DNA of 62,541 bases, filler included, from Diploschistes diacapsis (GCA_023645945.1; 23 parts of 23 records of this genome joined end to end with filler, not necessarily neighbours in it), one strand, 5' to 3'; shown: positions 10,836 to 33,087, counted from the whole stretch's first letter. Numbers and translations are program-made. The notes: a model not told the origin generated them from the letters alone.

Positions 10836-11842
10836 ATTTATAAAATTTTATAAATTATAATATTACGTTTATCGAAAACGGTATTAATTATTTCATAATT
10901 AACTTATATCTTTAGAACGCGTCGCGTAACTTATTATTTAAAAGAATATTATAAATCTAATAGTTTTTTATATTACTTAAAGGCATTTTAAAGCTTAATT
11001 ATTTTTAAGACTCGTTAATAAACCTCGCGGAAATTAAACGTATATGTCTGTTGAATAACTTGATCCTATAGTTCTTGACCCTCTTCGGTGCGGCCTTGCA
11101 TTAAATAATAAGTACTTAAAGTTTCCATCGTGCTCAGCGTTGCAGGATGCACGCTTCCATAGTATTGAGACTTCAGATGCCACATATCTGTGAGCATTCT
11201 TTCAGCCTCCGTCAGATGATCTGCTTCCAAGTGGACACAAGCCAGCCCTTCCATGGCCCAAATCAATTTTTCTGTGGGCAAGCCTTCGGTACGTCGAGCT
11301 ACCGAGATTGCTTGCTTATAGAATCGAGCTGCATCGGCATAGCGATAGTGTAGGTGATACTTTCGTGCAAAGCAAAAGGCTTGTTCAGGAGAAAGCGCAA
11401 CCCGTAGGCTCTGATCATAGTTACCGAAAGAACCCTGCAAGCAAGCATTCAAATGGCTTAAAGTTTGCTTCCGAAATGCAAGCGGGTACTGCATCTTATT
11501 GGTCTCCGACAGATAGTGAGCTAGGATCGTGCAAGCCTTTTTGAACAATCCAGGGTCGGAGAGTAGCGCAACAGAAATCGCATCTCGGGCCCCGGCAAGA
11601 ATGGTGAAGTACAGTGCATCATCGAGAGTAGAAAGGGATAGCAGGGACTGTTCTGAAAGATTTTGCAGAATTTTTTCAAACCTGTGTTTGCTCCCGCATC
11701 TTTCGTCCTGAAAGATTTGAATCCAAGCCTCTGCCCTCGTACTAGCGCTGTACAAGATGAAATAATGCTCCGGGATTGGCTCCTCTCCGAAGAGTGTTGC
11801 AAGGGCCAGGAAACGAGACACGAAGGAAGTAAATTGCTGCAT
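10836..11842 (-). pseudogene. NLR-type TPR-repeat protein (kinesin-light-chain-like repeats), RIP stops toward the 3' end
   Basis: RYADAARFYKQA..., AMEGLACVHLEADHLTEAERML...GSVHPATLSTMETLSTYYLMQGRTEEG; premature TAG at 11066 and more stops toward the contig end. Confidence 0.7.
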
Positions 11843-12210
11843 CGGACTGTCTGATTACTGTTAATTGTCGAGAAAAAGTCTGATATAATTGACCGAATAA
11901 TCCAGCATTAATCGGATTAAAGGGCATCTTATATAACTAAGATAAGCAAAAGATGGAACCCCTTTTCTACGGCGCGAAAAGAAATTGAAACGCAAAAAAC
12001 TTCCAACGCGCAGTTTCTGAAACACCCAAAAGTTAAGCGCATAGACTTTGCGTGAATGAACACACCACTTGAAGATGATAAGCGAATTAATAGAATCTGG
12101 AAATATATGTAGAAATAAGATATAGCGCAAGTCGCAAAATTCATACCACCGGACTTCAATTATGGAAAGATCCAAATTCTTGAAATTAAAATCCAATGAA
12201 ACTTCAGAAC

Positions 12211-13992
12211 CTAGACGACCCCCTTTGCAAACGAATTTCCATAACTACGCAGCCAAAAAGGGACTCGCTCCTTTGGTTAAAAAGATGAGAAGACAAGCTT
12301 CGTTTGCTTATTAGCCATTCGTGCGACAATCGCGTGCACTTCGTCACGAAACTCAGCATTAGCAGTAACTAAAGAAGTCAGAAGATAATCCTAAAAAGAT
12401 TCAAGTTACAGATACCTGAAAAGAGAATCTTGCCATTAATCTGGCGAAGTTCTTTATCTAACAGTAAGAACAAATCCACCTTAGAATAGAACTTCTTAAT
12501 GCGACTGTGATCACCGTACTCTTTTGAACTTCCGACGCTTGCCTAAGAATTTTTGAAGTCATTAATAACGTAAAGACGTATCCTTAGAATCTAAGACGCT
12601 TTTAATAGAATAGTCTTCCGATCTTGCATCAAGGGTCTTACATAGGAGCCTTCGTCTAGGTCCAGCAGCGCCTACATCCAATCTTGAACCCAGTTCTCGT
12701 TAGCTGTCGTCGCATCAGTTCTCCGAACTTGTAAATAGGATTGTAGTGTGTAAACAACCCACCTTCTCGATCGAGTTGCTAAACGACATACAGTCTCTGA
12801 GTCCGAACTTCTAGCCTTTTGTATCCTTCAACAATGTGCCTGGCTTGCGGGACTTGAGCAGCGATGCCCACTCCCGAAGCGAATAAAAAGACACTTCCAA
12901 AATCGCCAAACGCATCTCCCAAGCCGTAAGGGCCAATAATCCACGTGGATAATCCATCGGTCGCGCCGGCGTAATTGGCGAGATACCTGGAAAAGCCTCC
13001 CCGGATTTGAATAAGAAGCTCGATCTGCTCGGCCTCTCCACGATCGTTGTTCTTCCACCACGTGATGATCACGTAGGGGTGAGTTTGCAAGAAAGACCAG
13101 AAACTGATCCGCGGCACCCACAAATAAATGAACTAACCTACGCTGACCTTGAATGGTCTTGTAGGTCGAATGGTGAGTCGGAGAGCTTCGTCCGAGCGTT
13201 TAATCCCCATAACGGCTCCCATTCTGAACCCGTAGACATTTCTCCACAATGTCCTTATAATCTGAAAAGAAATCGTCACGGCGAAACATAAAAGACCAGA
13301 CGTTAAATAGAGAAGCGATGACCTCGAGCTCAAACTTAGATGCCTAACGAGCGCAGAGGCCGCGGCAGGAGCCAATAAGAGATGGGATTTTGAGACAAAC
13401 TCAAAATAGTGGTTGCGAAAAAATGAAAGAACGAAGATACATGCAATTGGAGCATTTCCCTGTAGGTCAGGTTAGATCCAGTATCCTAAAAGATAGCGTG
13501 ACATACGAGCAATCCAGACAACTGCGTTGTATCCGATGTGGAGAATGGAAAGAGCTGGAGCTGTACGGCAACGTGGACCACGGCTTGTAACAGAGCCATA
13601 ATTCCGAGCGAGCCGTGAACTACGTGAGCACTTCGAGGAGCAAACCCTAAAAGACTAGCCGCTGTAGTCAAACTCCAGAACATAATCGTTAACGCAAAGT
13701 TGATTACAGCGAGAATTCCCGCCCTTTGCCCTGCGGTGGCGAGACTGCTGATGTGAAAGAAGTTATAAACAAGCGTACCTGCCCAATATAGCAGGTTTAG
13801 AAGAACAAACAGTCGAGTGACGGGAGGGAACAGACGGGTACGCTTCAACAAAATGGGATAAACTACATGCTTTGCCAGGGAAAAGCATACACGATAACGC
13901 ATCGATGAAGAAATCCACCTCAGGAGCCTCCAGAGCAATCGAGCTGCGATGCCCATCATAATGCAAGATGAGTAAACGAGGTCCACAAACAT
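12211..13992 (-). pseudogene. Ferric reductase / NADPH-oxidase-like (FRE) protein, multi-exon
   Basis: Transmembrane part with His pair (HVVHG...VVHV), FAD motif QTHPY, NAD motifs GPYG and FASGVGIAA; W-to-TAG stop at 12779-12781 and a TAA near 12277. Confidence 0.8.
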
Positions 13993-14222
13993 GTTGAGAT
14001 GATCGAAGGAAGCTTATCGCATAACCAGAGACTCGATGAAAAGATATATATAAAAGAGGATCCATTTTGCGGACCACTCATGTTCAGAAGCGCGCGACTA
14101 CGTTTGTTAGTCACCATTCTTCTCCATTCGCGTATTATAAGAAGCCAGTCAGTGCTAAAAAGTTTTAAGCTTTTCGTTGCTTGGAGCAGTCTCTTATACA
14201 GTTTTATTAATCGCCACTGACC

Positions 14223-14731
14223 ATGGGTCGAAAAAGAATCGAGTGTCCGCCGCGCCATGATAGAGAGAGAGTTCGAAAAAGTAAAAGTCATCTCTTCCGC
14301 GCGGCCAAACGAATCACTACCTTGGGCGATGTGGATGTGCAGGTTTTGGTTCGTTATTGCGGCACCTTGTATTCATACATTCTAGAGCGCAGAGCGGATT
14401 GGCCTCCAACCGAAACAGATCGCGTAAGTGGAAGGCTTCCCAGCCAAGCGAAGAGATCTGATTCTTTGATCAGGCCAATGCCACTCCCGTCGATATTCAC
14501 GAAAACAGGAGCCAACCCAAAGCCAAAGTCATGCCCGTCTATCCCGAATTACGATCTCCGCCTATCTTGGAACCATCGCCCATTGAAAAAAGCAATGACG
14601 GTTCTCTATCGAGGGAGAAGATGGAAGCTACATGTGGCACCAATGTAATGAGTTTGGAGCAAAGAATATCCGCAACCCAAAGTCGATTTGGATGCAACAA
14701 ACTTATGGCTGAGGAGGTTCTGAGCAGCTAA
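14223..14731 (+). CDS. MADS-box-like protein (2 exons, intron about 14424-14473)
   Basis: MGRKRI...RVRKSKSHLFRAAKRITTLGDVDVQVLVRY.G..YSY...WPP follows the MADS pattern; a gtaagt...cag intron joins it to ORF 14531-14731. Confidence 0.6.
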
Positions 14732-15131
14732 ACCTCAAGTATGTTCAGGCTAGTTCGGAATTCATACATTATATATAGGTTTAACGTCATGACTTTTCAT
14801 TCTTGCAGAGTTCAATTAGCTGCGAAAAGGTCTAACAGAGCCTTGTGAATGCATTTGATGCTATGTGTCTGATCACGTAGCGATGGCACCTTCTAATTTA
14901 AAATGCGCGTGCTTGATTCCGCAGCAATTCCCAACCCAAAAATCAGCAATAAACGGCTATTATGCGCTCGCTCCCTATTTCTGAACCTATCATTTCTTCA
15001 CTAGCGAGAATGTAGCATTGGAGCTGGCTATGGAATCCATTCGCAGGTACCTAATCGTATAATAACATCAATGCACTAAAAAAGACACAGACTCCATAAG
15101 GAGAAACCCCAGCGCTCAAGCCGACCATCCG

Positions 15132-15938
15132 TCAATAATCCGAATCTTGTTCCTCCGCTATGGTGTTAGCCGCCAGGAGCGGCGCCTCTTCTGCATCCTC
15201 TAGACTTTCAGAGCTAGTCTCTTCAGATTCATGGTGCGTGTCGCGTCGCTGGCGCCTTTCCTGTCTATTTTCGAGGGCCTGGAAAAGTTCCAGCTGCGAC
15301 GCCTGATAGAGCATCCTCATCTCCTCGATCTGTTGATAATCTTGCGTAAGGTTTGACTTTAATTCTTCGATTGTCCTTTGAGAGGCGCGAGTATCCCTCT
15401 TATGGACGTCGATACTCCTGTGCAAGGCCTGGTTCTCCATCATCAACGCATCCTTATCCTTGACGAGCGTCGAGATCGTAGCTGAAGCCACGACTTCGCG
15501 ATGGTTGCTTTGCGAAGAGAGTCGCGAGATTTGATCTCTTAGCCCTTCAATTTCCGCGTCAGCATCTTGGAGCCGCTCCTGCAGGTACATCGTTTCTGTA
15601 TAGTCGTCGTCACTTTCATGCGTGAGGTCGATGGCGTTTTCGGTGTTGTTCATCGAATCTCGGTGCATTGGATTCGAGCAGGGCGGTGAGACGGTCCGGT
15701 TACGGCGGTATCCTTCAAGCTGCTGCGATAAGTTTCTAACCGTTTGCCAAAGATCGTCGCTCGATGCCTGCAGTCTTTCCGCTCTGTCGAACGATTGAGT
15801 GACCCGACGCCAAGTCTCGTTGAGCAGCTCTACGTCAGACCATGAGTTAAAGGATCTGGGCTGCTTTGAGTCGTCAATGCAGGTTGGCTCATATTTTTGC
15901 GCAGGACTCGCGCTGGGTTGTAGTATGGGTCGATTCAT
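15132..15938 (-). CDS. Coiled-coil hypothetical protein
   Basis: Intact ORF of about 268 aa, heptad-rich (LQERLQDADAEIEGLRDQISRL), with an acidic tail. Confidence 0.65.
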   Translation of the reverse strand: MNRPILQPSASPAQKYEPTCIDDSKQPRSFNSWSDVELLNETWRRVTQSFDRAERLQASSDDLWQTVRNLSQQLEGYRRNRTVSPPCSNPMHRDSMNNTENAIDLTHESDDDYTETMYLQERLQDADAEIEGLRDQISRLSSQSNHREVVASATISTLVKDKDALMMENQALHRSIDVHKRDTRASQRTIEELKSNLTQDYQQIEEMRMLYQASQLELFQALENRQERRQRRDTHHESEETSSESLEDAEEAPLLAANTIAEEQDSDY

Positions 15939-16086
15939 CGTGGAACTCAAGACGAGACTCAAGGTGCGTGTAACCGAAGTAAGGGCCGAAAAAGTCGATT
16001 AGCGATCACATATTGACCGAAAGATCAAGAATCATATGAGTTTTTATATTCCTCTTGCTGCTATTATTGGATTCAAAATGCAGCGC

Positions 16087-16705
16087 CTACTGAGATAACG
16101 GGCTGTTGTTATGCCCATGACCGGCGGCGGCCACGGTGGCCATATGCCGCACTTCAGCCAGACTCGCATCATGCCCAGATAACCGCCGAAAATACTCGCC
16201 CGCGCTGAAACCATTCAAGCCGAATGTTATCAGATCACACCTGTCCTTCAGCTGCACGTCCCACTCACCACTCTGACGTAGTGCATGCCAAATCGTTGAA
16301 GGAAGCAGTACCGTTGATTCCTCTTGCCACGTATCACAGTCATTGGCCGACGCTGCATCAGGCACGGTGCAGCTGCCAGTCTGATGTTCAACAGGGTCCT
16401 GGTTCTGCATCCCGCCGGACGTGGCTCGCTATAATGGTTCAGCGTAGCTCGCAAGCTTTCGGACGTATACTTACAATCTTACGAACCTCGTCCTGCACCA
16501 AAGCAGGCTGGTGCGTATGGAGGTATGCCCATTGTTCCTTCACTGACCAGAGCGATCGCGACCGTCCAACCTTTGCTGCGTTGAATCGAGCGTTGACCTC
16601 GGTCCAGGTCTCACCGGGATTGCTGAGCCGAGTCCGCACAAGTAAGCGCCTTTCGGTCTCGGTCCAGAGGACCAAAGGTCGTTTAGCCCTTTTCGGGGAT
16701 GCCAT
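16087..16705 (-). CDS. Myb/SANT-like DNA-binding protein (2 exons, intron 16429-16486)
   Basis: Three regularly spaced Trp: WTETERRLL...WTEVNARFN...RSLWSVKEQW; a gttcgt...tag intron joins in frame to ORF 16087-16410. Confidence 0.7.
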
Positions 16706-17356
16706 TGACGCACGTAGCAATTGAAGGTAAGTCTTTTTTTACATTACAATAAGATGATTGCGTGTATCCTGCACCGCATCTTATACACATCATGCGACGG
16801 TGGTGGGTAGTAGCGAACGAACCCGTTTGTAGCGGAGCTGAGTCGTGTTGAGAGCGTAAATGTTGGTACGCAATGAATGCAGCCCAGACGATCCACTTAT
16901 GATCACATCGCTAAGTGGAGCTACTGCGCAATATTGGCCGGCCGTCTTGCCTGCCTGGGTTACGCTGATCATGATTTTCGCGCCTGATCACACCACTGAG
17001 GGCGGAATACATCCCGCTTGCAGCGCCTTCACCTCGCAAATGCAACTTCAACCCACTCATGAAAGGTATAAGTTTTCTTGACAAGCTCCTGAGACACGTT
17101 CGATGATGGGTGAACCCGCTTGATGCACCTCAGATCTCGATGCGATGGGGGTTCTACAAAAGTCTTCCCCTCTTTGGCGAGTCGCTCTTGAGGCTGGGCT
17201 AAGTGCCGCAGGATCATGATTCCCCCCCTTGGTGGCCAGCAAGCTATAATAGACCCGAGGATCCAGCCTGTGCAGATCTCGCTCTCTCGACCGAACAAGG
17301 CAACTCAGAACCCTCTGAACGCAACCGAAGACTCATTTAACTTTTTCACTTACCTC

Positions 17357-17912
17357 ATGGATCCATTCATGTTGAGTGACCAACCTTCTGATTGGCAGGA
17401 TGACAGCGATTTCTGGGCCGAGATGTTGAAAGGTGACTTCGCAGACCAGATGCTCTCTTCCGACTTTCCTCCTAGTATGCAGCATGGTTTCCTTGATCCC
17501 CTTGATTCAACGAGTCAAATAGACTTGGCCGAAGCATCGTCCAGCAGTCACAGCTTCGAGAGAGCCGTATGCTGCTGCATGCAAGGTCACGCCGCTCGGT
17601 CAGCGCAACGATCTGGAACCGAGAATGAGATGCAACTTGGAGAGAGGGCGGACGTTAACTCCTTGAACAACTTTGAGCTAGACGATAGTCAGCCCCGTCG
17701 GTTATTGGCTCTGGAAAATGAAGTGAAGGCGCTAAAGGCCACCCTGGAGTCTACCCAGACGTTCGTATCGTGATTGCGCTTTGACAAAATCATGGCCGCT
17801 AAGAAATTACAGAACAATCAGGCGCCTGCAAAATTATATTAAGGAAGTTCAACCGTGGATCGTAGAGGTCGCAGAGGTCGTGCGAGGTAGAAAACCGACT
17901 GCTGGCGTATAA
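17357..17912 (+). CDS. Acidic N-terminus plus coiled-coil hypothetical protein (intron 17761-17812; may start at 17216)
   Basis: Spliced C-terminus RLLALENEVKALKATLESTQTTIRRLQNYIKEVQPW; D/F/W-rich N-terminus. Confidence 0.55.
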
Positions 17913-17948
17913 AGAAGGGGGAAGGGGAGTTGGCTGCTGAGGCTTCCT

Positions 17949-18323
17949 ATGTGCATCTTATTACTTTTTTGTCTGTCATCTATGATGGCGCCTCGATGGA
18001 CTGACGATGAAATTGCGGTTATTGTTTACTTTAGATCGAGAGGTTTCAGCATCCCAGAATGTACAGAACTACTTGAGAAAAGGGGTAAATCCAGAACCGT
18101 GACGGCAGTGGCGCAGAAGCTGGTGGAGCTTTCGCAGGCTCACTCCTTGAGTAACGAGGATAGGGAATGGTCCATCGAAAACTGCGACCGTTATATAGGC
18201 ACACTGCGTGTTTATGATAAGTCTGAGCTTCTGTCGCTTAGCGAAGACGAGCGGCTTCTTCTCGAGGTACCTAATAATGCGTTATATTATTCTCGTCTTA
18301 ACGTCTCTTAGCGCCAAGCTTAA
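17949..18323 (+). CDS. Small Myb/SANT-like HTH protein
   Basis: PRWTDDEIAVIVYFRSRG...KSRTVTAVAQKL; probable short terminal intron gtacct...tag. Confidence 0.6.
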
Positions 18324-18476
18324 ATATCAGACATTTAAGGATTGCGTGTGATTATTTTGCGCGAGGATTTGAAGTGCGCGCATTCAGTTTGAAGTTTGTT
18401 ATATTGCCTTTGTCCTTTGTCCAGAGTATGAGACTCTCAGCTTTTTCTGCTCCACAGACCTTCCTTGCATTTAGAC

Positions 18477-19607
18477 ATGCAAACACAATCGCCTCTGGTC
18501 ATTCTGCTTTGCTGTTTGGCGCAGCTCGGGGGATCGATAACTGAAGGCAGTCTCACAGGATGGGGAGCCCTGCAAGTTAATTGTCCACAACAAAGCTCTC
18601 AGCTCTAACATAGACGCAGTGATCAATCGTCAATCGAGTTCCAATTGACCTATGAGGTCGAAGGAGCGAGTTCGGCTCCCTCTTGGCCGATGCCAACGCA
18701 GATGTCGCCTCCGTCAGTGCCGGTCACTGAGCCCGTGGGCATTCCAGCAACATCGTACCTGGCAACTCCGACTGTGCTGCTATCAAGCACAACAAATGGA
18801 TTGTTTCAAAGTGCCGCGAGCTCGACGTCGTACGGCGGGATCCAGCCCGCTGCTACTTCCGCTGCGTCAAGCGGAGCATCCATCCCCGTCGCAGTGGGAG
18901 CCTTCATGGATCCTCTTTCCAACAAGACCAAATTCGAGTTTCGACCGAACAATGTCACGGCTCGCGTTGGCGACTTTATTGTCTTCAACATGCTTGGGCA
19001 ATCTCATTCTGTCACGCAGTCCTCTTTCGACAGTCCATGTCAGAGCCTAGGTATTTTCGACACCGGTCTTTCTCCAAACCCACTTAACGCAAGCAATGCG
19101 GTCTTGAAGTCCTTCCGGGTATACACGAACGAACCGCTGTGGTTCTACTGCAAGCAGAAGGGGCATTGCCAAAAGGGAATGGTCTTTTCGATCAACCCCG
19201 AGTCCAATGCCCAAATGGAATCTTTCGTCAACAAGTCCAAGCTGGATCAAGACAGTGGCAGCGCCAACATGTCTACGGCGCTTACGTCGACTACGTCGGC
19301 TACGTCTGCAGTCGTCACAGTCTTCTCTACCGCAATCGGTTCGGGAACATGCACCGCGTCAGCTCCGTCATCCAACGCTTGCTTGTCCGCGGTTCCCGGG
19401 CTGGGCTGGAACGCGAGCACACCGGCCTCTGGAAAAACGCCCCCTGCTCCAACAAGTCCAATCGCAGGTCCCAGCATGAATGTTTCTACTAACATTGCAT
19501 CGAGCATTTTCTCGGTGCCTACGGGCCACGTTTCAGGAGCAAGAAGGCTGGCTGCACCCACGCTCTACTTCCTAGGAGGGTGCATTATCTTGTGCATCAA
19601 CACTTAA
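18477..19607 (+). CDS. Secreted, GPI-anchored Ser/Thr-rich cupredoxin-like protein
   Basis: Type-1 copper ligands HSVTQSSF...WFYCKQKGHCQKGMVF; hydrophobic N-terminus joined through a predicted GC-AG intron starting at 18572; GPI-like C-terminus SGARRLAAPTLYFLGGCIIL. Confidence 0.8.
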
Positions 19608-20313
19608 TGTTTTGCATCGATTGACGTCATTGCTTGCCTTTCTTCTACTGTTAAGGGACTGTGAGTGAGTCGGGTTAAGTAATCAGGCGTTATAACTTAC
19701 TTCTTGATCTTTTTGAATAGAGTAGTAACGACCTTCAGCAAGTTTGGGCCATGTGGCTGCGGTTTGTTATTATGCATTTATTAACATTGTTTTGAATTTG
19801 CGACTGGGCTGGCACTCCTTGTACTGATAGTCTGAATTCTTTGTAGGTTCATACGAAGGTAGAAAGCGGCTAAAGGGACAATGAAATTCTTTCTTGGAGT
19901 AACTGTTGTTGTGTACGCGGAACCCCGCTAACACCGCTTACCCCACTGCCAGAACAAATGCCTTGCACCCTACCTTTCTTTAGCCTTGCCGGCGGCTGGC
20001 TTCAATTTCGCGTTTTGAAGCACCTTAACAGCAGCAGCAGGGACCTCTGATCATGCGTTATTTTAAAGTAATCGTATATTGAAGATACTTTAATACAATT
20101 ATCAAAATTTTACACTTAAAGGTGCTTCAAGTGTTATTCTACATGTGTAAAGTGGTAATTACTGAACAATTTTTTAATTTCACATATACTTCCTGTAACT
20201 TTGCGCATCTAACATGCCTGGCCATCATCGATTTTGGAAAAAATGAAACCCTTTAAAATTCTGGTTCCCCATAATTTCGCTTTATCTTTAACGCATGATC
20301 AGGAACCAAGGAT

Positions 20314-21453
20314 TTAAAGGCTTGAAATATCACAAACTTGGTGGTTCCGATACCAGCAGCGCTCGACGATCAGAATACGAGGGATCAAGCAACGGGGAGT
20401 TTGGGATATCTTGAGGAATGGATGCTTCCGCCACGTATTAGCTTCTATTTGCCCATTCGGCGCGGAATTACCTGAAGAAGGACGTCTGGCCTCGAAAGCT
20501 CTTTCAATTGCTGATAGAAGGATTTTAAGTCGTCATCCCAAGCTTTACCCTGGAGGTTAAAAGGACTATCAGCATCCTCGTGCCCAGGATCCATCATGCT
20601 TTCCAGCATCTCCCTCAGGCTGGATACGTCTGTCTCCGTGTTGAGCTGATGCTCAATCATGCTGGTACCGATATTTGCTGAACCCACTGTTAGCTAAGCA
20701 TGTTTGGTTTATTCCTGGACCCACCTAGCTTAACGTTTGCTTCGACATCCAACATTACGTTCCCGGCGCTCAGCGCTCCATGCGAGATTTTGAGGACAGT
20801 ATGTACGTATCGAAGACCTCGCAGAACCTGCTCCGGGTCAGCCTAGCAAGTATACGCCGTGACATTGCTACCTCCTTGCAGATCGCGGCGATCTCAAAGG
20901 GCCGCAAGTGCGGGCCCGGCATGACCTGAATCGCTGCCAGAGGAACCGACGTCGGCTCATAAACGAAATAAAAAGCGCCTTCAGAGTGAAAAGCCTCTTT
21001 GAGGGCGACGACGTTGGGATGTTGACAGGAAATTATTCGGTCTGGGCGACATTCGCCAAGCAAGCGTCGAATTGCCACCACAGAACGTGTCGAACTGCGT
21101 CCGTGGGCCACTGTGACCTGTCCAGCTTGGTCTTCGGTCAGCACCGGCTTATACTGATTCCAGGGATCTTCGAGCCGAACAATATCAGAGCGGTGTTCTC
21201 TGTGCGTGGCTTGGACGTCATAACGATGGAGTTCGGCCTGCTGCGGAAGTGATCGTCCAACGGCGCGCTTCTTCGGTGACGACTCCGATGCAGCTGGCAA
21301 GGCCAAGGGTTCAATGGGGCTCTTGGCTGGCGAAACAAAGAGGTCTGGAGAGGGATCTCGCTCTTTACGCTTTGCCGGAAGCTGGAGGTCCTGGAGTCGA
21401 TTACCTGGAAAACAAGTTCGTCGGCGTTCCATTGCATTCACACGCACGAGCAT
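20314..21453 (-). CDS. Protein kinase-like pseudokinase (about 4 exons)
   Basis: VVAIR, QHPNVVALKEAF, FYFVYE, EIAAICKE/VLRGLRYVH...HGALSAGNVML, ANIG, HPFL. Confidence 0.75.
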
Positions 21454-21536
21454 ATATATACGAACAAATATGTAAATCGAAAAGACACAAGGTTTTATAT
21501 AAGAACTCTAACCCCTCTCCGGCGCTTAAATAATGT

Positions 21537-21896: not shown

Positions 21897-22262
21897 CGTT
21901 GGGACTGTCAGCCTAAGAATTGGTAGAGGGAGGATGAAAGCAACCTTGTCTCAATACTCTTCTTTCGTGTTCTTTCAGACGCTTCTCAATGGAATTGGAT
22001 GCTTATGCATACTTTCACTTATTTTTTCTTCTCCTCTTATCTCTTTACTTTTTGCGCCGCATTTTATTTTGCGACCTTATTTTTTGCGCGGTGGAAAATT
22101 TGGAGTGCTGCCCGTACTCAATTTCCTCCCCTAATTTCTGGCGCAGTATGATAGAAAATGATTAAAGGGCATGCATTCCTTAATTCTTATCGCATGATTT
22201 CGTTAATACCCGTCAATGATATTTAATACATTACACTTTTAATAGCATCGACTTACATCATT

Positions 22263-23765
22263 ATGCCACCTAAAGTGCCTGACGGTGTCATCACATCCAA
22301 ATGGCGGAGTGGTGATGGTGATAAGGGCAGAGATGGAACGAGCGACATTGAGGAAGATGAAGAAGGAAGTAATATGGAAATCGATCAAAATGAACAGCAG
22401 CAGCGTGAAGCTTTCCTCGCCCAAGGTCATACGTCAAAACGAAAGATGGATCCACCAAGGGGACCCATGAAACAGGCTTTGGAGATGGCAAAGAGCAACT
22501 TCGGGTCGTTTTGGGAGGATGGAGGTGCGAAGCTGCCTCAGAAACTCCGGAAAAAGCTTCGCGAGAAACTCAAACATTCACCCTACACGCCGCCATTTGC
22601 AGAAATGGAGCAGCTCAAGCGCGATGCGGTCAAGCTCGTCAAAGAAGGGCCCAACGACCTGAAAAATTGGCACGAAGCCTACCAGAAAGCCAGCCACTTC
22701 ACCCAAAAGATCATTCAATCGGGCCTCGAAGGATTCAACATATCCCCACCCGATGGCTGGCTCGAGAAAGCCACAGGACAGAAACCTCCTAAGTCCGATG
22801 CGGAGGCTGTCCCATTGTCTGGAGATACCGACGAAGACAGCAATGGATCCAGCGATTCCGAAAGCTCGGCGGATTCTGACGAGGTTGGGAAAAGCGATGA
22901 CGAATTCGATGCAGATGCGAGCGACACCATCGAAGCCTTGGCCGAGGCGAGCGGAGCGCAGCTGCCCTTATCTTCCGAAGGGGATAAGATCCTGGCCTAT
23001 TCTGCTCGGGGCAACGTTTGGGAGGTTTTGGTGAAGCAAGGCGGGGACGACAATGTCAGATACAGGATGATGCCCGCCAACGGGGCGAAAGGTTTCAGCA
23101 AGCGGAACCCTGTACAGCAAAACCTTGCAGAGGGCCAGAGAGGTCTAGAATTGAATCCGGACCGCAGCATGGTTTGGAAGTCAACCGACGTAAAGGCAAT
23201 CAAGGGGGTGGCTTGGAAGGAAAGCGGCGATTCCGAAAATCCGCTCGACGACATGTTTCCTGGAAGAGAACAAGAGGATCGCTTTCCCGTGACCCGAGTC
23301 TACATTGAATGGACTAACAACAAGAAAACCTGGGAGACGCGGACGACCGTTCGAAAATTGTATAGCAAAAACATTACCGATAAACTGATCTACCAGCGTG
23401 CTGGAATCGCAGAACAACGATGGCGCCGTGACAAAGGTCTCGACCCGATTCGGGTGCAAAAGATGCAGGTCGGCGACGAAGCACCTACTACGTCAACGGT
23501 GGGTGGCTCCGTCCGATGGGCGCCACTGAGTACTGGGGAAAGAAGCTATCGATCAAGAAGTACGCGGGCTGCAAGCACTCGGACGTCAGTCACCCGGGCC
23601 TCACGCCCGTCCAACGATACCCTCCGTGAACTCGAAATCAATGCCCGATTTGAAACAATCGAGCAACAATTTATACAATTTTCGAAAGATACTGCCAGCA
23701 TTATACGCAAAGAATTACAAGCAACATTACGATCCGAACGCAAGAAATCGGCGAAGAAGGGCTAA
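22263..23765 (+). CDS. 500-aa hypothetical protein with an acidic tract and a chromo/chromo-shadow-like motif
   Basis: Longest intact ORF in the window; IKGVAW...TRVYIEWTNNKKTWETRTTVRKL; basic C-terminus (ERKKSAKKG). Confidence 0.75.
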   Translation: MPPKVPDGVITSKWRSGDGDKGRDGTSDIEEDEEGSNMEIDQNEQQQREAFLAQGHTSKRKMDPPRGPMKQALEMAKSNFGSFWEDGGAKLPQKLRKKLREKLKHSPYTPPFAEMEQLKRDAVKLVKEGPNDLKNWHEAYQKASHFTQKIIQSGLEGFNISPPDGWLEKATGQKPPKSDAEAVPLSGDTDEDSNGSSDSESSADSDEVGKSDDEFDADASDTIEALAEASGAQLPLSSEGDKILAYSARGNVWEVLVKQGGDDNVRYRMMPANGAKGFSKRNPVQQNLAEGQRGLELNPDRSMVWKSTDVKAIKGVAWKESGDSENPLDDMFPGREQEDRFPVTRVYIEWTNNKKTWETRTTVRKLYSKNITDKLIYQRAGIAEQRWRRDKGLDPIRVQKMQVGDEAPTTSTVGGSVRWAPLSTGERSYRSRSTRAASTRTSVTRASRPSNDTLRELEINARFETIEQQFIQFSKDTASIIRKELQATLRSERKKSAKKG

Positions 23766-24249
23766 AACCCTTAAAGAGGAAGCACCATAGGCCGCCATAA
23801 ACCACGATTTCATTTATCGTTTTGTTCCTTTTTCTCCATTCCAGTAGAGTTTAATCGTTCGTTCTGTTTCCTTAGAATCATATGACACCTTTCTCGTGCT
23901 TTAACATTCGCTTTCGAGTTTAACATAGATTAATCTATAGTCTTAACAATTAATTTTGCCTATCTCATCCTTACACTCATATATTTGTGTTCTGAAACGC
24001 TATTTACAACAATTACCGTATAACCTTTAACTTTTTAGTAGGACCCGTCGCCGTGAAGGATGTCTAATAATAGCCGTAGATTTGCTCAAGCTTGAGCCCA
24101 GAAACTTCATGAAAGCTACTGCCATGATCGAGGTTTTCGAACTAAGTTATTATGTCGGCGCTGTCAAGAAGAACTCAGCCGATTCGTGGCATATAAGATG
24201 CGCACCAGCATAATTTCGAAGGGAAAGAGTTAATAGTTTTCCAATGTGA

Positions 24250-24386
24250 TCATGAGTGGGAAAGCGGATCGCAAGCACGGAATAGTCTCCGTTGATATAA
24301 GCGGTAGATGATCTCGGCGCCGTTCATGAGTGTAAGCACGGTGTACTAAATTACTGAAACTCTGGATCATGAGTGAATCATGGGTG
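24250..24386 (+). promoter_or_regulatory. Cluster of TCATGAGTG motifs upstream of the 24562 gene
   Basis: Exact copies at 24250, 24324 and 24367; near-copy TCATGGGTG at 24378. Confidence 0.35.
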
Positions 24387-24561
24387 CTTATAATGCGACT
24401 AAAAATTCTAAGTCTGAACAGAAACGCTATGCTGCAGGGGTTGGATTTTGATTAGTACGGTCTCTCTTCCTTTGAAAACAGAGTTGCTTGTGCGAATATT
24501 CCTTTCCTTTCCTCCAAATCGTTTTGTTTTTCTCAAATACTGCAAAGATCTACGGTTAACC

Positions 24562-25391
24562 ATGAATCCAAGGAAGGACCTGACGACTGCGAATGTTAGT
24601 CGTCTATATCAATGCCATGGGCTTGCTGATCACAATAGAAGTCCTCATTCAATCCGCCATGGTCCGATACCGAAGTGATCAATGAAGCATGGAGACGTAG
24701 CGCTGCTGCCGTAGAGAAATGCCCTCGTTTGGAAATACAAGTCGCAAACCTAAGTGTCGGCGTACGGAACCTAGGCAGCCAATTACAGTCCTGTAACCGG
24801 GCTTTGAATTCTCTTCGAGTGAGGCTCCAGGAGGCCGAAGCGGCCTTAGACCTTGCAGAGAGTGTCCAAAACCGCTGTGAGAACGATCTACGCGCCGCCA
24901 ACGAAGACAAGAAGGTTTTGTTACGTGATATTGCCGGAAAGGATCGAGAGCTGGAGAAAACCAGGAACGACCTCCTCGAATCTGAGCGCAAGCTGGAGCA
25001 GATGCTGGGGGTTGAAAAAGAGGAGGATGCCATGATGGTCGAGCAAGTAGACGTGCTCTCGGAGGAGAGTGAGGAACTCGGAGTGCAGGTGGATCAGCGG
25101 TGGCCGAAGTTGGTCAACCAGATGGCTCACTGGTATCAGGACTTACCGAAGAGCGAGGAGCTGGAGGTGCACCCAAAAACTAGGCAGCATACAACGCTGC
25201 GAGATCATACCTTTGGACCTAATTTGCGGAGCCAATCTCTTGGTCCGGCGATCCACCCATCTCGGAAATGGACGAACTCTCCAGCGAGCCAACCGAAGGC
25301 CGTCAGCATCAAGCAAATGTTGAATGAAAACGATGCCAACGTTCTACTCTCAGCGAACAGTTGCTCCAAAGAGGATAAGCCTTCGGCGTAG
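24562..25391 (+). CDS. Coiled-coil hypothetical protein (intron 24595-24638)
   Basis: An ATG exon spliced through gttagt...tag is in frame with ORF 24675-25391; long heptad region. Confidence 0.65.
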
Positions 25392-25775
25392 ACCAGGATG
25401 TAAAGAGTATCCATGTCAATCAGAACCCGAAATTTTGTACGCATTGATGGTGCTTGGAAAGGGGTCGTTTTTTCATGTTTTTGATGCGAGCCGAAGACGG
25501 CATTTAATTAACTATCAGTGGTTAAATAGTGTTGAAATTGAAATTTCTTTCCACGTGTCCTATTCCAGGTCCCAAATGAATATTCATGAGCTCCATCCTT
25601 GACATACACCAGCAAAAAGACGTCCTTTCGATAACGAGAACTCCATTCGGTCTGTTCTCTCGCGCGTCAGATAGCCATCTGACGCGCAAAAACATGATCT
25701 AGATACACGGCGACTGCGGGAGGAATTTCTCGGCTTTGATCTCCGCGACAGCTGTAGAATGATCGAATGGATCGT

Positions 25776-28700
25776 TCAACTTCGAAGCCTTTTTCCTGGG
25801 CGAAATTGCAAAGACCCCATTCTTTTCCTGTTTGACAAAAGACCCATTCTTTGGTCTTTGATAATGTCGCACTTCACGCAATGAGCTCTTGTCGTATCCC
25901 TGTGATCCGCGGAACCGAAGGCAGCGTCGAGACCTTGCTAAGCGATGTACCACCTGATCGACTGAAGAGATCCGCTGATAGGCCTTTTCGAATCCGCACC
26001 TGCCTACAAATATATTATAAAGACAGCATCAAGATCGCGGACCTGCAAAACAAGCGGTTTCTGAAAACGTTGACAGAAAGAACACACGTCTGACTCTAAA
26101 AAGGGCCCAAATCGGGCTACGTCCGTAATGATCTCGGCGCTAAGAACTTTTTTACGGATATTTGGAATGATGTCCAACGCAGGGAACCTACACCTCACTC
26201 TTCCGTGACAATGAAACATACCATCATGGTATTTTGATACGTCATCTAATTAAAAAAAAAAGGTCGAGCTAAGCAGTGCGACGACGGTCGTATCTAGGTA
26301 ACCACGGTCCTTTTCTTACATACGGACTGTGTCCTTTAGGAATTCCATCTTGGAGGCATCGTCGAGTCGGACACTTTCGCCTGCCGGAAGCGGTACGTTC
26401 AGTCGAATGTAAGAACTCCTATACGCATGATCCAGACGCCCTACGAGCTCACGCCATAGCGCCTCACCGTTAAAGGAATAAAGGAAGGAACGTACAAGGC
26501 GAAAAAGAAAAGAACTATGGAGGAAGCTGTTCACGGGGGAAAGCGCGCGACCGGGTTTAGAATGCTCTTTACCTATACTCAAAAATAAAGTTACGTCGAT
26601 ACTCGCTGTTGGCCAAACCTGCTGGGCCTCGCGTAGGGCAAGGTTGACCGGATTATTGTACCGTAGGCCTCCGTCCTGGAAAAAGCCGATGCTCGCTATT
26701 TGTGCTGGAGGGAACAGACTGGAAGCATTAGACGAAGTTCACATAATTGGGAGATGTCGTACATTGGAGCAGCAGATGTTGCACGAGCACTAAAGATGAT
26801 CAGCCGAAGCGCCATTTACTAAATATAGGGGTAACTCACGCTTCCTAAATCATGGGATCTGGAAGTTAATCCCCTCGGAGTAATGAATAACCTGATGAAC
26901 GTTGGACCTTCAAAAGTACCATTCTGCGAATGAAACCTACCGCATTCATCCGGTCGAGTTTCTGGACCGTTGTAATTAGCCAAGACGCAGGCAGACGCAT
27001 CGGTCATCGTCGTGGCTGTAACGGCAATTTTAACGCCAGAAGACGACGGACCATCAATACCAAAAAGAAGACTATCGCGACCTAAGTTCTGCTATAAGAA
27101 TTGTTGAAAAAGCTGATTATCATAATAACCGTTCATTAAAAGACAAAAGAATGCGTCCTTGAATCTAAAAAACATCCCTCGCGAAACCCTTTTTCGCTTA
27201 AAAAAGAGCTGCTGACCGAGCGTAACAAATTTTGAAGCATAAGTAAAAACGTCCCATCCTTTTAAGAACACCCCCAATACTGTTAGACCTCCTGGTTTCG
27301 TCAGTCATCCGATCCAGCTGCAGCACTCCAATCTCACCCGAGCTTGTCCCAAACACAATGTCGAAGAGATCATACATCTGGATGCGGGGCCCCAGGTCCT
27401 GCTACAGCATCTAAAGAAACTCTAAAGGTATTACGCCGCATACACCTCCGCCGTCGATAATGAGGATACGTATTCCTACTGTTAACGGTTTCAGTCTTAC
27501 TGACAAATTATCCTTCCCCCGACACACGAGACATTCAGATAAATAAAAAAGAAACTCGTTGGATGGTAAACTAGATCCGTATCTTTGTACGCATGTATCG
27601 TAAATATAATATCCACACGATTACCGATGCTCCGCGTATCGAGCGACGCAGTAAAAACAAGTCCAGATATGTTGCTTAAGTTGCCATACGATTGAAATTT
27701 CTTGTAAAACATCCTGACGCATGCTTAATACGGAATAATTTCCAGCAAATATTGCAGTCGAAAGCTTAACAAAACACTGTTACACTTCTGCATCGTAAAT
27801 CTCTGCGATCTCCACATCCTCGTAAAAAGACCGCAGAGCGTTACGGCAAGGCTCGGCAAAAAGCGACTGATAAAACATCCTGAAATCAAATCCTGCGCAA
27901 GTCAGCGGAACATACACGACATGGAAAACGAACTATACATTTCTAACGGATATGCTTCTACAAGTAAAACAGAAGCAATGCAGCGGACCACAGAATCGAA
28001 CGCATAATCTTTAGTCATCCGCAGGAAACAGATAAAGTATTATAATAAGCCTTATAAAATAGGATTAAAAGCGCGGGCGGCGCATATCGGATCGTAGGGG
28101 CCAATAAATATAACGCTCGCCCGGCTAGCCATGTCATCCAGATACCAGCGCAAATGAGACGCCGAGAAAAGAAGATACTTGCGTCGGCGCTCCTCCCTCT
28201 TACTATCAGCTTCGTCGCGAATAAGATCCCTTAAACGCTGATAACGAGCCAAAAAGGAAACCCGATCTCCAACAAGTTTTACAATCTTAATCGAAAACGC
28301 TTGACTGGTCAACGAACGACCATCGTCATCCATAAATTCCTAACGAAAGTTATCCTCTTCTAAAAGCTAGAAAGTGGGACCAGTGTCTCCATCCGTGGTT
28401 ACGACCAGGATATTCGGAAGGATTCGTCCAGTTGAAAAAGGTTCAGCCATGGCCCACAACTTGAGGCACGTGGTAACGCCTCGCAACCCACCGTAATCAT
28501 CTGCCAGAATGCACACAACGTCAGCCATCACCAGTGAGAGACGGGCGTGAAGTGAAGCGACCAGCGCTTCAGGCAGAAGTGCTTCGCCTTGCAGCGGCAT
28601 AGTGTGGTAGACATGGCAAGCAACGTCCCGAGATTGCATGTTAAGAGGGCTACGTAGATCACTATCAACAAACACGAATGGATTTTCTTTGTCTATCGAA

Positions 28701-28942
28701 GCATAATCGAGCCGAATGTTCATAAAGGCTCGATCGGTCGAACGACGAATATTATTGCAGGAAAAAAGTTCTCGAAGAGCAACGTCGATGCTTTTGTTGC
28801 CAAAAAAAGCCACGATGCTTGGAAACTGTTCACGGATATTAGGAAGATCTGAAAACAAACGATCCAACCGTTGTCTGTCCTGCAAAAGAAGTTGATGATC
28901 AGGGCGTAGTCGCAGCCAGGCGACGTGATCGCACTTGCCCAT
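25776..28942 (-). pseudogene. Patatin-like phospholipase (PLP), Starship type, with RIP stops
   Basis: RILIIDGGGVCG, DIVFGTSSG nucleophile elbow, ARATSAAP, FQDGGLRYNNP; several in-frame TAG/TAA stops (for example EFL*ML*QD). Confidence 0.9.
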
Positions 28943-29212
28943 GGCGGCAAAAAGGTGAGCAAAGGTCGATGAATAATGAAATATAATCCAGAATGCCAGA
29001 ATGAAAGCTTGCCAGGTTGTCCAAAAAAGAAAGAAAACAGATGTATGTTTAGGAAAGACAAATGGGAAGGGTATTTGTTTCTTTGGGAGAATGCTGCTAC
29101 GCTGGTTTTGCGCACAGTAGTCAATCGAGGCGCAAAAAGGAAGCTCTTTACACTAATACCTTCGATCTCCCTGATCCAATGGTGACTCTTCAATGCCTAT
29201 CTATCTCCTGCC

Positions 29213-31551
29213 ATGGATGACCGTCTTCTTGGAAAAGCAAGATCCTTTCTAGGTCGGGCCAAAGTGGATATTAGTATCTAGCCTACAGTTCAAGCCTCGC
29301 AATCGGTGTCAGGATAAAGATAAACGGAAGACTGATCGCTTACTCAGCATTTTTAGCCGAGAAAGGTGTTTACGGAACGACCCTGATCACTTTATTCCTA
29401 CAGTTATCGCTCCCGATGCTCTTACTGTCGCACTACAACGGTCAAGATTAAATCCCTCCGACCTGAATCTGAAAGATACACCTCCCTTTCTCAATCTAGG
29501 CGATTTAAAAATCTCTTGCCTTCATGGACAGCACAGGATTAAGACCGCTAAAGCGTTTCTTTCACCTTTCGATAAATGGTGGATCGTGGACCTATACGAT
29601 GAAAATGGGTACCCCTCTTTAAATCGTGCAGCACCGCTAATAAGACATAGCATTAACGCCTAACCTTACCGCATACATCAAAAACGCCTATACAAATTCC
29701 TTAAACTACTGCCATAGAGACATTTATCTGAATCTCCGGCAATATCAATTGCAGAGGCGAGCTGAACAAATCAACAGGTAGCTTACACGGCTTCATCCCT
29801 CTATACAGAATGATCTCCTGCGATTCCAGAAACGAAAAGACTTCGATCTCTTGCGTTCTCTCCTTGACAGTTTGCTTCCATTTCTCGATCTTTGGCCGGC
29901 CTTGCAGCTTAGATGTCTGCGTCGTATTTTTAATATTCATCAGCCGGAGATAAAGCGCTCCATTCTTTCTGAGTTTACCCGTGCTAATACTCGAAAGGAA
30001 CTAACGTGCTACGTTCGGGAAATATACGACACATAGAGCGCCATCCTTCAGAATCAGGCGACGCTTTTTCACTCTTTGGATTTTCGAACAGTTGAGGCAC
30101 TGCAGCTCCGTAACCCATGCCAATGTCCGAAAGATCGTAAATACATCGTAAGAACAATACAACAGCGCCGTATATTTCGATTAATAACAAATCCGGTCCT
30201 TCGTCAATCCATACTTAATCGAATAATGAAAATCGACCATGAAATTCCTAGCCTCCATACCTTTCTTGAAGATACGAAATGGCTTGAGCCATGTACAATC
30301 GTTGTACGAAAACATCTTTTCCCCTTAGGCAAAGGCTCATGCTATTCATACTTGTATCAGCATTTCGACTTTACTCAGGAGAGCATGATCGAAAAGTCAG
30401 ATCTGGAACTAGAACCTGCAGTCGTTCAAGACCGGAAGGAAAAATTTACACTCGCGTACCGGCAACTTTACATGTACGCATGGCGCCATTTTCCAGAACT
30501 TTCCAATTTTGTTCCCCGGACTGCATCTACAAAACTTAACACGAAGTCGATTCACTCTTACAAGCCAAAACGTAATAGGTACAATCCTATCGCTGGACAT
30601 AGACTTCAACAACTGGCTCGAGATCTTGGATTTAAGACCGAAATTCCATGCGTCGATGCGGAAATCAATATGATTCTGAATTTTCTTGAAGAGATACGAC
30701 CTCATGAATCATACCCGCTTCACTCTAATACGCGAATAGGGCTTACACGGAAACTGCGATAGGAAATTAATCGCTACAAAAGTAGGATTTCCGACCATCG
30801 TAATTCAACAGATAACCCAGAGATACCCATTCAGTATCGTTGCGGCCGCCCTTCAAATACATCTTATCGAACGACAAAACCAGATTTTTTCTACAAGAAT
30901 ATCTACGAGCACTCCGATTTTCAAACGGCTAATTGTTTTCAAAACAATACGAACATCTTTAAGCGGTTTTTCGGCAAAATCTCCGGCGCATTCGAACAAT
31001 CACCGATCCCAAGCAATGAATTACAGATCTCGTCGCCCACCTTGGAGTTAGAAGATCCTAGTGATACTCAAGAAACATTACAAGAACAAACAAATACCGG
31101 TTTCCATGACGTGAAAAACCGAAGTAAAATATCATCCGCGATTGAGACACGAATTACAGGTCGCAAAATAATACAGATACCTCCTCAAGCCAACTCAAGG
31201 ATAAACACTCTCACTTCAGGTTTAAAGGGGTATAGGACGCAGACCCATCAAATAAATAAAATCACTACAATCATCATCGACAATAAACCGGATACAATTA
31301 ACCGCTAGAACCTCGATCAGGAGCTCAGACGCTTCAATCAAAGTGAACACACCTTTTAGATCTTCTCTAATAACAGAAGTCTCTCCTTTTCTAACAAAGA
31401 GACGGCCATAGCGAGCTTAACGGGCGTTGCAACTAAAAATGTGCTGCACATATATCCAAGAAACCAAGATCCGTTTGCTAATAGGACTGATCACTGTTTT
31501 GACGAAAGGGACGGCTGTCGTTGCACGCGTGCGAAAAAAAAAAAAAGATGA
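29213..31551 (+). pseudogene. DUF3723 domain protein (end approximate)
   Basis: RLLSIF..E.CLRNDPDHFIP, CLHGQHRI, KWWIVDLY, IPSLHTFLEDTKWLEPC, AYRQLYMYAWRHFPEL, RCGRP. Frameshift near 29275, TAG stops, and an intron donor mutated GT to AT near 29949. Confidence 0.9.
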
Positions 31552-32099
31552 TAAATTTCATGAAACATCATAAGCTATATTTAGGACGTAGGATATGATT
31601 ATCTCATTCTGCGGCTATTTATTTTTTACGCCCAATTATTTTATGCTCTTACTCTTTTTTTCGCGCGCGACCCATTTCGTGAAGTACGGACCGTCGAGTT
31701 GAACCATAAGTATGCTCAATTCTATCGTATCTTTCTAGAGCCCGCATCTGATTCAATTATAACATCGCCACGCTCAAGCAACATAAAACGGGCTACTAAT
31801 AAACGAAAATATCGTCTCAAGATGTCCGCACATATTCGTAAATCAACGATTTCTTTCTAACAACTCCTAATAAATTGGCCAAGGCTCAATAAGCATCCGT
31901 AAGGACCTTCGGGTTTTCTTATATAACGAATCGAAATACGGAACTACTGTGAACTTCAAGAATCAAAATGAAAACTTTCTGCGGAAGAGAGATAAGAGAT
32001 TTCAAACCTAGATCATCGAGGCACTAAAGTAAGGTTATCGTTACGATCGATAAAATAAATAAACTTTAGTTTTGAATCGAGTTTCCGAATCATCGAGCA

Positions 32100-32920
32100 T
32101 CTCGACCCGAATACTTAATCAATTTGCAAGCATTCGTCGATAAATACTAGATAAAACTCCCGTTTAATACACTTAACACGCAAAACGAGACTCCCAGCCG
32201 ACCAAACACTTTCAATCAACGGCCCTACCATATCACAATCGAATTAATTAAACGTCAGTATCTCCTACGATTCGATCCTCGCTATATAAATAAGAAAGAC
32301 TATCAATTTATCATCCTCTTCGAAATCATTAACTTTACTAACCAGCCTCTTAAACCAGCGTTTAAACCACGTTTAGCTCTAAACCTCTATAATGAGATTT
32401 TTAACTCAGAAGGAAAGCCGTACACGAGTGACAAAAAGAGAACCCCTATCGACCATATGTCAACTTCGGGCCCATTTCCGTCGCTCACACCCTGATAGAC
32501 CTCGGGCGCAGCGTATGTGTTCTACAAAATGTCCTTAAGGGCTGGTCTTCTACGATTTTCGAAAGACCAAATCGGCAATTATGATGGTTGTAGATAAGGT
32601 GCCGAAAGTATTAATACCCTTCTCTTTAACCATAGGATAGTGACCATAGATTCCCACAGAGATATGGTCATGCGAGCTGGGAGAACTAAGATCTTTCGAT
32701 GAATGTCTCTTTCGCGCTTTCCAAGGGAACGAGATACGGCAGCAAGCCAGATGCGAAGATGCAGACAAATCGCCGTCCTATGAAACGTTCTTCCAGCTCT
32801 ACGATTTCAAAGGCGTTCGCATGCAAAATCTCGGAGAGGACGACATCGCCGTTACGCTGAACGAGCTTGTGCGCGAATCGAGTAGACTAACATCTAGGTC
32901 TACGGCACCCCGGCGGCGGG
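32100..32920 (-). pseudogene. Degenerate Ser/Thr kinase carrying an unrelated SHDH..GHYP fragment
   Basis: With frameshifts: IAD(F)GLSKIVEDQPLRTFC.T..CAPEVY...EVDIWSIG, preceded by KRERDIHRKIL..SHDHISVGIYGHYPMV. Confidence 0.65.
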
Positions 32921-32924
32921 TCTT

Positions 32925-33087
32925 TGTAACAGCGGGGGTAGTGCCTAATAGGTAGCGCTATCCCACTGAGCCAAAAGACTAACCACAATGCTTTCAGGAA
33001 CCCCGAAGCATTGTTTCCCTATTACACTATATGTAGGTGCGTGGCTGTGGCAGTAGGCGGCAGATGTGTAACCCCGCAGGCCTTACA
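32925..33087 (+). mobile_element. LTR (family D), no 5-bp TSD
   Basis: Near-identical to 5631-5793; flanks gtctt and cttat do not match. Confidence 0.85.

Follow-up and report, generated by a model that had tools for sequence, protein, structure and literature searches.

The 62,541-nucleotide (nt) stretch of DNA analyzed here (hereinafter the window) comes from the genome assembly of Diploschistes diacapsis (GCA_023645945.1), and the part of it on which we concentrate, one complete short-read contig of 22,977 nt at positions 10836-33812, is probably an interior piece of a Starship, or of a region resembling one, that has decayed in the genome of a Lecanoromycete (lichen-forming) fungus. According to the sections of Gluck-Thaler et al. 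2022 (PMC9156397) on which we rely throughout, what defines a Starship is a DUF3435 captain at its 5′ end together with target-site duplications; in a working element this captain, a tyrosine recombinase, cuts out the entire element and inserts it again, carrying along conserved auxiliary genes of the DUF3723, ferric reductase (FRE), patatin-like phospholipase (PLP) and NLR families, the rest being cargo. The same sections term regions with at least three matches to DUF3723, FRE, PLP or NLR and without DUF3435 "degraded Starships", and describe "Derelict" regions (PMC9156397). On the present contig, four auxiliary families, namely DUF3723, PLP, FRE and a TPR_10/12 repeat protein, lie within 21 kb and every one of them is broken: DUF3723, PLP and the FRE FAD_binding_8 domain supply three matches, to which the TPR_10/12 tail can be added, and DUF3435 is absent from the 22,977 nt examined. 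The gene content and its pseudogene state are read directly from the sequence, and from them we infer descent from a Starship. The original prediction for 10836..32924 had proposed the body of a Starship or a derelict one; as all four auxiliary genes are inactivated, the derelict alternative fits best. Both the pseudogene state of all four genes and the identity of the interval as a whole contig between artificial linkers go beyond what had been predicted.

The predicted DUF3723 gene is indeed present. PF12520 scores 138.3 bits against a cut-off of 22 and matches three plus-strand open reading frames (ORFs) at 29253-29660 (E 1.2e-21), 30037-30759 (E 4.4e-40) and 30763-31305 (E 1.7e-5), which cover profile positions 1-83, 194-422 and 446-508, respectively. 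PF12520 is likewise carried by 18/18 of the homologues in the database, the best of which is 35% identical (E 9e-68) and the sole named one belongs to the lichen fungus Flavoplaca oasis; since even the best homologue is only 35% identical, the contig does not duplicate a previously sampled element. The frame of the gene is broken: the stretch that tblastn aligns to a 626-aa homologue contains three in-frame stops, and the N-terminal piece sits in another frame. The TAG stops at 29779 and 30034 fall on a tryptophan in 3/3 homologues, i.e., they represent TGG-to-TAG transitions. Extending the frame to 32952 yields 24 stops in 1057 codons, though much of this tail is not DUF3723.

Adjoining DUF3723, head to head with it, is the patatin phospholipase gene of the original prediction, which we can now describe as a full-length pseudogene colinear, from 28942 to 25869, with residues 1-951 of a 986-aa protein of Lecanora helva. 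A tblastn search with P0025 as the query returns four segments in frames -3, -2, -3 and -2 (three frame changes) with 14 in-frame stops. On the read-through translation the Pfam Patatin profile attains 26.9 bits against a cut-off of 27.7 over its N-terminal 37 positions, and there is a second match at the C-terminal end with an E of 0.015; the sub-threshold score is rescued because PF01734 is carried by 29/29 of the homologues (best E 2.8e-49). Patatins are marked by a Gly-rich loop, a GxSxG serine and a DG(G/A) aspartate, and the pseudogene contains the strings GGGVCG, GTSSG, RATSAAP and DGGLRYNNP, which we take to be the patatin motifs. The PLP-DUF3723 adjacency is shared with the Voyager reference element, where the two genes bear the consecutive tags mp102_11356 and mp102_11357 (Table 2 of PMC9156397).

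FRE and the TPR gene survive in a more reduced form. The parts of FRE that can be recognized are a membrane-domain ORF (13489-14013), an FAD-binding domain interrupted by a stop (13118-13147 region) and the mere start of the NAD-binding domain, again with a stop (12758-12793); as the gene ends about 500 nt ahead of the next gene's remnant, it is truncated. On the read-through translation, FAD_binding_8 (PF08022) exceeds its cut-off of 22 with 31.7 bits, a stop lying within the match, and NAD_binding_6 (PF08030) reaches only an E of 0.28; the FRE call is thereby upheld for a remnant and not for a complete gene. In the TPR gene, the open tail (11069-11854) matches TPR_12 (E 1.7e-10) and TPR_10 (E 2.5e-7). 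Upstream, the same frame continues through two stops (11855-11863) into an AT-rich, degenerate ORF of 127 codons (11864-12244). Repeats of the TPR_10/12 type are those joined to NB-ARC in fungal NLRs. Neither NACHT nor NB-ARC, one of which forms the central nucleotide-binding domain of an NLR, was detected in the ORF or read-through Pfam scans of 10900-14900, where nothing further appeared at E≤5. Thus, from the predicted NLR-type TPR gene the repeat part is recognizable and the nucleotide-binding domain is not.

How far the absence of a captain can be interpreted depends on the nature of the contig. To form the window, 23 unplaced contigs were joined into a pseudo-molecule, in which every N run is the same 100-nt unit, N44-TTAATTAATTAA-N44, a six-frame-stop type of linker used for stringing contigs together. 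There are 22 such linkers, at 1708-1807, 3514-3613 and so on through 60755-60854, which separate six contigs of 1707-1705 nt, the 22,977-nt contig, and sixteen contigs of 1703-1687 nt; therefore, the sequences flanking 10836-33812 in the window are unrelated to it rather than being its genomic neighbors. The contigs are sorted by decreasing size with the exception of the 22,977-nt one, which is placed between the 1705-nt and 1703-nt contigs.

The two ends of the contig were further characterized by means of public sequencing runs, of which X1 (labelled lichen metagenome, and possibly the source) has a share of 1.00 of the sampled words, X2 ("organism A") 0.63 and X3 ("organism B") 0.05. No RNA run is among those listed. 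An independent Logan contig of X1 (21,939 nt) matches the region from 11014 on with 0 differences, its expected end being at about 32952. X2 has a loose end to either side of 11041/11042: in this run, the AT-rich 10836-11041 piece runs into other sequence, and what lies to the right of 11041 follows GC-normal DNA, a left-flank 30-mer of which has 0 matches in the window. Because X2 is different and GC-normal to the left of 11041, the neighborhood is variable. At the other end, 32924-33812 matches 6/22 of the small contigs (blastn, 67-96% identity), with the matches beginning exactly at 32924, and displays a composite index of repeat-induced point mutation (RIP) of +0.47, as against -0.1 to -1.1 elsewhere on the contig. 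Hence, the predicted end at 32924 corresponds to no gene end but to the start of a dispersed AT-rich repeat. Together, the X1, X2 and blastn data place the unique segment at about 11042-32923, with both assembly breaks within dispersed repeats. In X1, the mean word depth is 103 for the main contig and 12.4 for a contig of 1518 nt that matches the AT-rich piece on the left.

In agreement with the original prediction, which reported no DUF3435 ORF, Pfam finds no match to this family among the ORFs of at least 50 aa on the contig (31 + 107 ORFs), in read-through scans of 10900-14900(-), 19650-22200(-), 25500-29252(-) and 31000-33812 (both strands), or among the 64 ORFs of at least 90 aa on the 22 small contigs; the plus strand of 10836-29250 and the minus strand of 14900-19650 and 22200-25500 were covered by ORFs of at least 50 aa only, such that a heavily broken captain remnant could escape there. 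No direct or inverted word of at least 7 nt is common to the breakpoints 11041 and 32923, which are repeat junctions and not proven termini, and at the DNA level the contig contains a single chance-level 25-nt repeat pair and no inverted repeats. Since the contig is an assembly fragment with both ends in repeats, the absence of DUF3435 from it says nothing about the element, and the description of the element itself as captain-less is not supported. More generally, in linker-joined pseudo-molecules, genes that are "missing" at the edge of an interval are a matter of assembly and not of biology.

The repeats at both contig ends and the variable neighborhood seen in X2 would also suit the interior of a Starship that still has its captain on another contig, the short-read assembly having broken in nested RIP-affected repeats and only the auxiliary genes having decayed. 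There is a precedent in Tangerine, a Starship of Xanthoria parietina with a putative degraded copy in X. calcicola: as described in those parts of the preprint used here, more than half of it consists of nested RIP-affected transposable elements, and one copy is split over two contigs of a fragmented assembly (bioRxiv 10.1101/2025.11.25.690456). We nevertheless consider a still-captained element unlikely, as the four inactivated auxiliary genes fit an old element better than an active one and none of the 64 ORFs of the small contigs matches DUF3435, though these contigs make up only a very small share of the assembly.

The decayed-element reading gains from the manner in which the contig differs from X2. 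This run covers all 30 depth bins over the 20 kb compared, with its eight longest pieces in the same order (not all junctions being bridged). Divergence is lowest in the pieces from the core of the contig (19/2467, 21/2113 and 36/3037, i.e., 0.8-1.2%) and ranges from 2.6 to 6.1% in the other pieces, with 57/2171 over FRE, 117/1916 over PLP, 64/1832 and 32/834 over PLP/DUF3723, and 84/2992 in the 23.2-26.2 kb piece. The pieces from X3 are mostly 95-99% alike, short and of low depth. Among 510 places at which the window differs from X2, 364 are transitions with A/T in the window and G/C in X2 (A>G 273, T>C 91), the remainder being 90 reverse transitions and 56 transversions. This 364:90 bias towards A/T in the window copy is a direct count and has the direction expected if that copy suffered RIP, which we regard as the probable cause. 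In 40 of 564 differences that were inspected, T>C is followed by A in 11/16 cases, the classical CpA context.

In this scenario, the auxiliary genes would have been killed by stops, frame changes and truncations that arose largely through RIP-type G:C-to-A:T transitions, and the open frames of the central 10 kb would probably represent surviving cargo, perhaps retained by selection. This cargo would comprise a 500-aa protein specific to lichen fungi, a small helix-turn-helix (HTH) protein, a cupredoxin-like protein, a pair of coiled-coil paralogues and a kinase-like gene. By itself, the fragment is incapable of moving.

The X1 and X2 comparisons also bear on whether the contig is an artifact, either a chimeric assembly or the product of several organisms mixed in one metagenome bin. 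The source may be a lichen metagenome and the small contigs range from 28 to 59% GC, which would be in line with such a mixture. However, the independent X1 contig runs through from 11014 on without a difference, and the complete bin coverage and conserved order of the pieces in X2 would be hard to reconcile with a chimeric join. We hence deem this explanation highly improbable.

Several observations weigh against a Starship ancestry or against RIP as the agent of decay. Outside Starships, fungal genomes have regions for non-self recognition in which genes for PLPs, NLR-like proteins and kinases occur in clusters as well. We saw no DUF3435 gene, target-site duplication, terminal inverted repeat or empty site. 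Of the auxiliary genes, PLP lies 0.8 bits under the Pfam cut-off for Patatin, the FRE membrane ORF (13489-14013) gives no match to PF01794 (Ferric_reduct) at E≤5, and the NLR status derives from the TPR tail alone. As for the mutations, A>G is preceded by T in only 7/18 of the inspected cases, which makes the RIP context only partly classical. For RIP to occur, there must be a duplicate or a spill-over from neighboring repeats; it could be such spill-over from the flanking repeats, instead of a past duplicate of the element, that made the divergence greater towards the ends.

These considerations lead to a further alternative, namely a repeat-rich accessory region unrelated to Starships, in which non-self-recognition genes and a stray DUF3723 gene were gathered and then degraded by RIP. 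The two kinase-like genes or remnants beside PLP and TPR would be at home in such a region, and neither captain nor boundaries were found to contradict it. On the other hand, DUF3723 and the PLP type of about 950 aa are reported to be largely specific to Starships (PMC9156397 among the sources, in the sections used here), the PLP-DUF3723 adjacency mirrors that of the Voyager reference, and the presence of 4/4 auxiliary families in 21 kb would be hard to ascribe to chance. We therefore think this alternative improbable and retain a decayed Starship as the preferred explanation. The original prediction had itself named two outcomes that would speak against it. The first, a failure of the profiles to match, is not clearly seen with Pfam, by which the families match, the Patatin score of 26.9 versus 27.7 bits being rescued by the homologues. 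The second, that the genes are syntenic single-copy core genes of all relatives, is not clearly the case either: P0020, an intact protein from the center of the contig, has only four homologues among 5.8 billion cluster representatives and is therefore not a conserved core gene.

The features of the contig are collected in Table 1.

Table 1. Features of the 22,977-nt contig, in window coordinates.
Feature	Position	Strand	Basis
AT-rich repeat piece at the left contig end, outside the unique segment	10836..11041		X2 loose ends 11041/11042; X1 Logan contig start 11014
Remnant of NLR-type TPR gene	11069..12244	-	TPR_12/TPR_10 matches, read-through translation, stop positions
FRE pseudogene, 3′ truncated	~12758..14013	-	FAD_binding_8, motif coordinates
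Coiled-coil ORF, open, 288 codons, paralogue of 24639-25388	15135..15998	-	BLASTP; no Pfam family above cut-off
P0054, intact 108-aa protein of a small helix-turn-helix-like family, sole candidate for a Myb/SANT-like fold	17985..18308	+	Homologues, model
Ser/Thr-rich cupredoxin-like protein	18477..19604	+	Cu_bind_like 21.4 bits vs cut-off 20.8, E 2.5e-4
Kinase-like gene in several frames (introns likely), degenerate catalytic loop	20200..21507	-	Motifs by eye, weak
Coiled-coil ORF, open, 137 codons	21540..21950	-	No Pfam family above cut-off
P0020, intact 500-aa protein, function unassigned	22263..23762	+	Homologues
Coiled-coil ORF, open, 250 codons, paralogue of 15135-15998	24639..25388	+	BLASTP
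PLP pseudogene, full length	25869..28942	-	tblastn with P0025, Patatin profile, homologues
DUF3723 pseudogene, head to head with PLP	29253..31630 (end extrapolated from homologue length)	+	PF12520 matches
Protein-kinase pseudogene remnant	~32300..32923 (outer limits approximate; matched 32414-32521, 32681-32713)	-	Pkinase, motif coordinates
Dispersed repeat, AT-rich and RIP-like, at the right contig end	32924..33812		blastn, RIP index

The other compact genes that had been predicted to be interleaved with the auxiliary ones are borne out by some nine more ORFs in the 15.1-25.4 kb interval, where the frames are open; two of these ORFs are called proteins with homologues. The first, P0020, carries no Pfam domain and has 35-48% identity to its four homologues, of which the one with a name comes from the lichen fungus Thelotrema lepadinum. 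The named homologues of PLP, DUF3723 and P0020 are thus all from Lecanoromycetes (Lecanora helva, Flavoplaca oasis and Thelotrema lepadinum), and the P0020 family has so far been observed in lichen-forming fungi alone. A metagenome scan with this family recovered one 2,164-nt locus of 37% identity, without context. The structural model of P0020 has a pLDDT of 62.3 and Foldseek returned no match for it at E≤0.001.

The two longer coiled-coil ORFs are paralogous to each other (BLASTP, 42% identity over 52 aa, E 4e-10). They are oppositely oriented, about 9 kb apart, and bracket the intact core, and there is no inverted repeat between them at the DNA level. The cupredoxin-like ORF is preceded by a signal-peptide-like start visible in translation, and an upstream exon would encode its probable signal peptide. 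In X2, a 1-nt deletion at 19301 would change the C-terminal third of this ORF; other differences in that run are small insertions or deletions at 16883, 17222 and 17342 and a 17-nt insertion behind 16924. The usual catalytic loop of kinases reads HRD...N, and the kinase-like gene at 20200-21507 has HGALSAGN at this position and possibly encodes a pseudokinase. Pkinase matches it at an E of only 0.26 in the ORF scan and not at E≤0.05 in the read-through scan. In the remnant at 32300-32923, Pkinase matches with an E of 8e-4 and 19.3 bits, under the cut-off of 31.7.

The two Myb/SANT-like genes of the original prediction fared less well. In the sections of O'Donnell et al. 2025 (PMC12256816) used here, the Starship MYB/SANT gene is a border gene defined by IPR001005 and located at the element edge opposite the captain. 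Pfam Myb matches were found in 0/7 candidate ORFs even at E≤5, leaving none backed by a profile. The coiled-coil paralogues (15135-15998 and 24639-25388) were considered as Myb/SANT genes and rejected: the likeness of their common start, "WSD.E..NE.WRR", to Myb helix 1 is a visual impression only, and nothing connects the two ORFs to Myb. This leaves P0054, which has 43 homologues besides itself (44 representatives at E≤0.001), about 100-180 aa long except for two multi-stretch matches of 346 and 456 aa. No Pfam family covers the P0054 family, and Myb_DNA-bind_4 appears in just 1/42 of its aligned members, at an E of 0.008; a hidden Markov model of the family matched no second ORF in the window.

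The P0054 model (pLDDT 88.7) is mostly helical, with six helices. Aligned with VIA-align, it matches Reb1, c-Myb, the CoREST SANT domain and TRF1 at Z 5.0-6.1, and PadR-type winged-helix rows tie with these at Z up to 6.5, both ranges being below the noise level stated for the tool. Its three-helix N-terminal part superimposes on Myb/SANT domains with a root mean square deviation of 1.4-2.5 Å, that for c-Myb being 1.4 Å over 46 residues. With the model as the query, Foldseek gave no match at E≤0.001, and the family profile found nothing under E 0.15 among PDB sequences. The modeled fold would thus be compatible with Myb/SANT, a likeness that is as yet unproven: P0054 resembles the Starship MYB/SANT gene in the three-helix superposition and differs from it in being 108 aa long, in lying mid-contig and in having no Pfam Myb match (PMC12256816, same sections). 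With Myb/SANT unverified and the NLR devoid of a nucleotide-binding domain, the "full auxiliary gene set" is, like the captain-less label, an overstatement, whereas the underlying observation is largely real and a derelict Starship body is a reasonable interpretation of it.

Among described elements, the closest parallels lie in the degraded Starships and "Derelict" regions of Macrophomina phaseolina, which, in the sections of PMC9156397 used here, share with our contig DUF3723, FRE, PLP and NLR-like genes in a region without DUF3435 as well as cargo that persists after the decay of the element. In contrast to those, the auxiliary genes here are pseudogenes, the host is a lichen-forming Lecanoromycete, and what we have is a 22-kb assembly fragment placed by its gene content. 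Tangerine resembles the contig in its lichen-fungus host, in the auxiliary trio of DUF3723, PLP and NLR, and in nested RIP-affected repeats that break up in short-read assemblies; however, the text of its preprint contains neither "ferric" nor FRE, of which our contig has a remnant, and neither its methyltransferase nor its ankyrin family turned up in our Pfam scans (bioRxiv 10.1101/2025.11.25.690456).

Starships in lichen fungi have been reported only recently, and a further region of Starship type, from a different and poorly sampled Lecanoromycete, would add a data point. It would show that the genomes of mycobionts are shaped by Starships and by the way in which RIP degrades them. The intact genes of the core are candidates for cargo that has outlived its vehicle. 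One could go further and speculate that the contig is a Starship relic in which the transposon machinery was selectively destroyed by RIP while lineage-specific cargo, i.e., the P0020 family, small Myb-like HTH proteins, a secreted cupredoxin-like protein and the coiled-coil paralogues, was kept as a domesticated accessory locus; we give this extension little credence. Were it true, the copies in X2 and X3, which bear other organism labels, could reflect recent horizontal spread from one lichen fungus to another and not shared ancestry.

Turning to the remainder of the window, Rfam and tRNA scans of its entire length gave 0 matches each. The small contigs are mostly AT-rich (28-39% GC), e.g., 1-1707, 1808-3513, 33913-35615, 35716-37418, 37519-39220, 44719-46417, 51903-53595, 53696-55387 and 59067-60754, and are probably RIP-degraded transposon relics. 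Dispersed repeat families of 67-96% identity are common to these AT-rich contigs and the right end of the large one. Four other small contigs (41121-42819, 46518-48213, 50109-51802 and 55488-57177) combine a GC content of 55-59% with long ORFs, present on either strand and without a Pfam family, e.g., one of 491 codons at 50110-51582 (-) and one of 419 codons at 55758-57014 (-). As the bin is metagenome-derived, these four might come from a different organism. Finally, part of a gene for homocysteine S-methyltransferase (PF02574, E 2e-23) is found at 57280-57990 (-), at the edge of a 1.7-kb contig.

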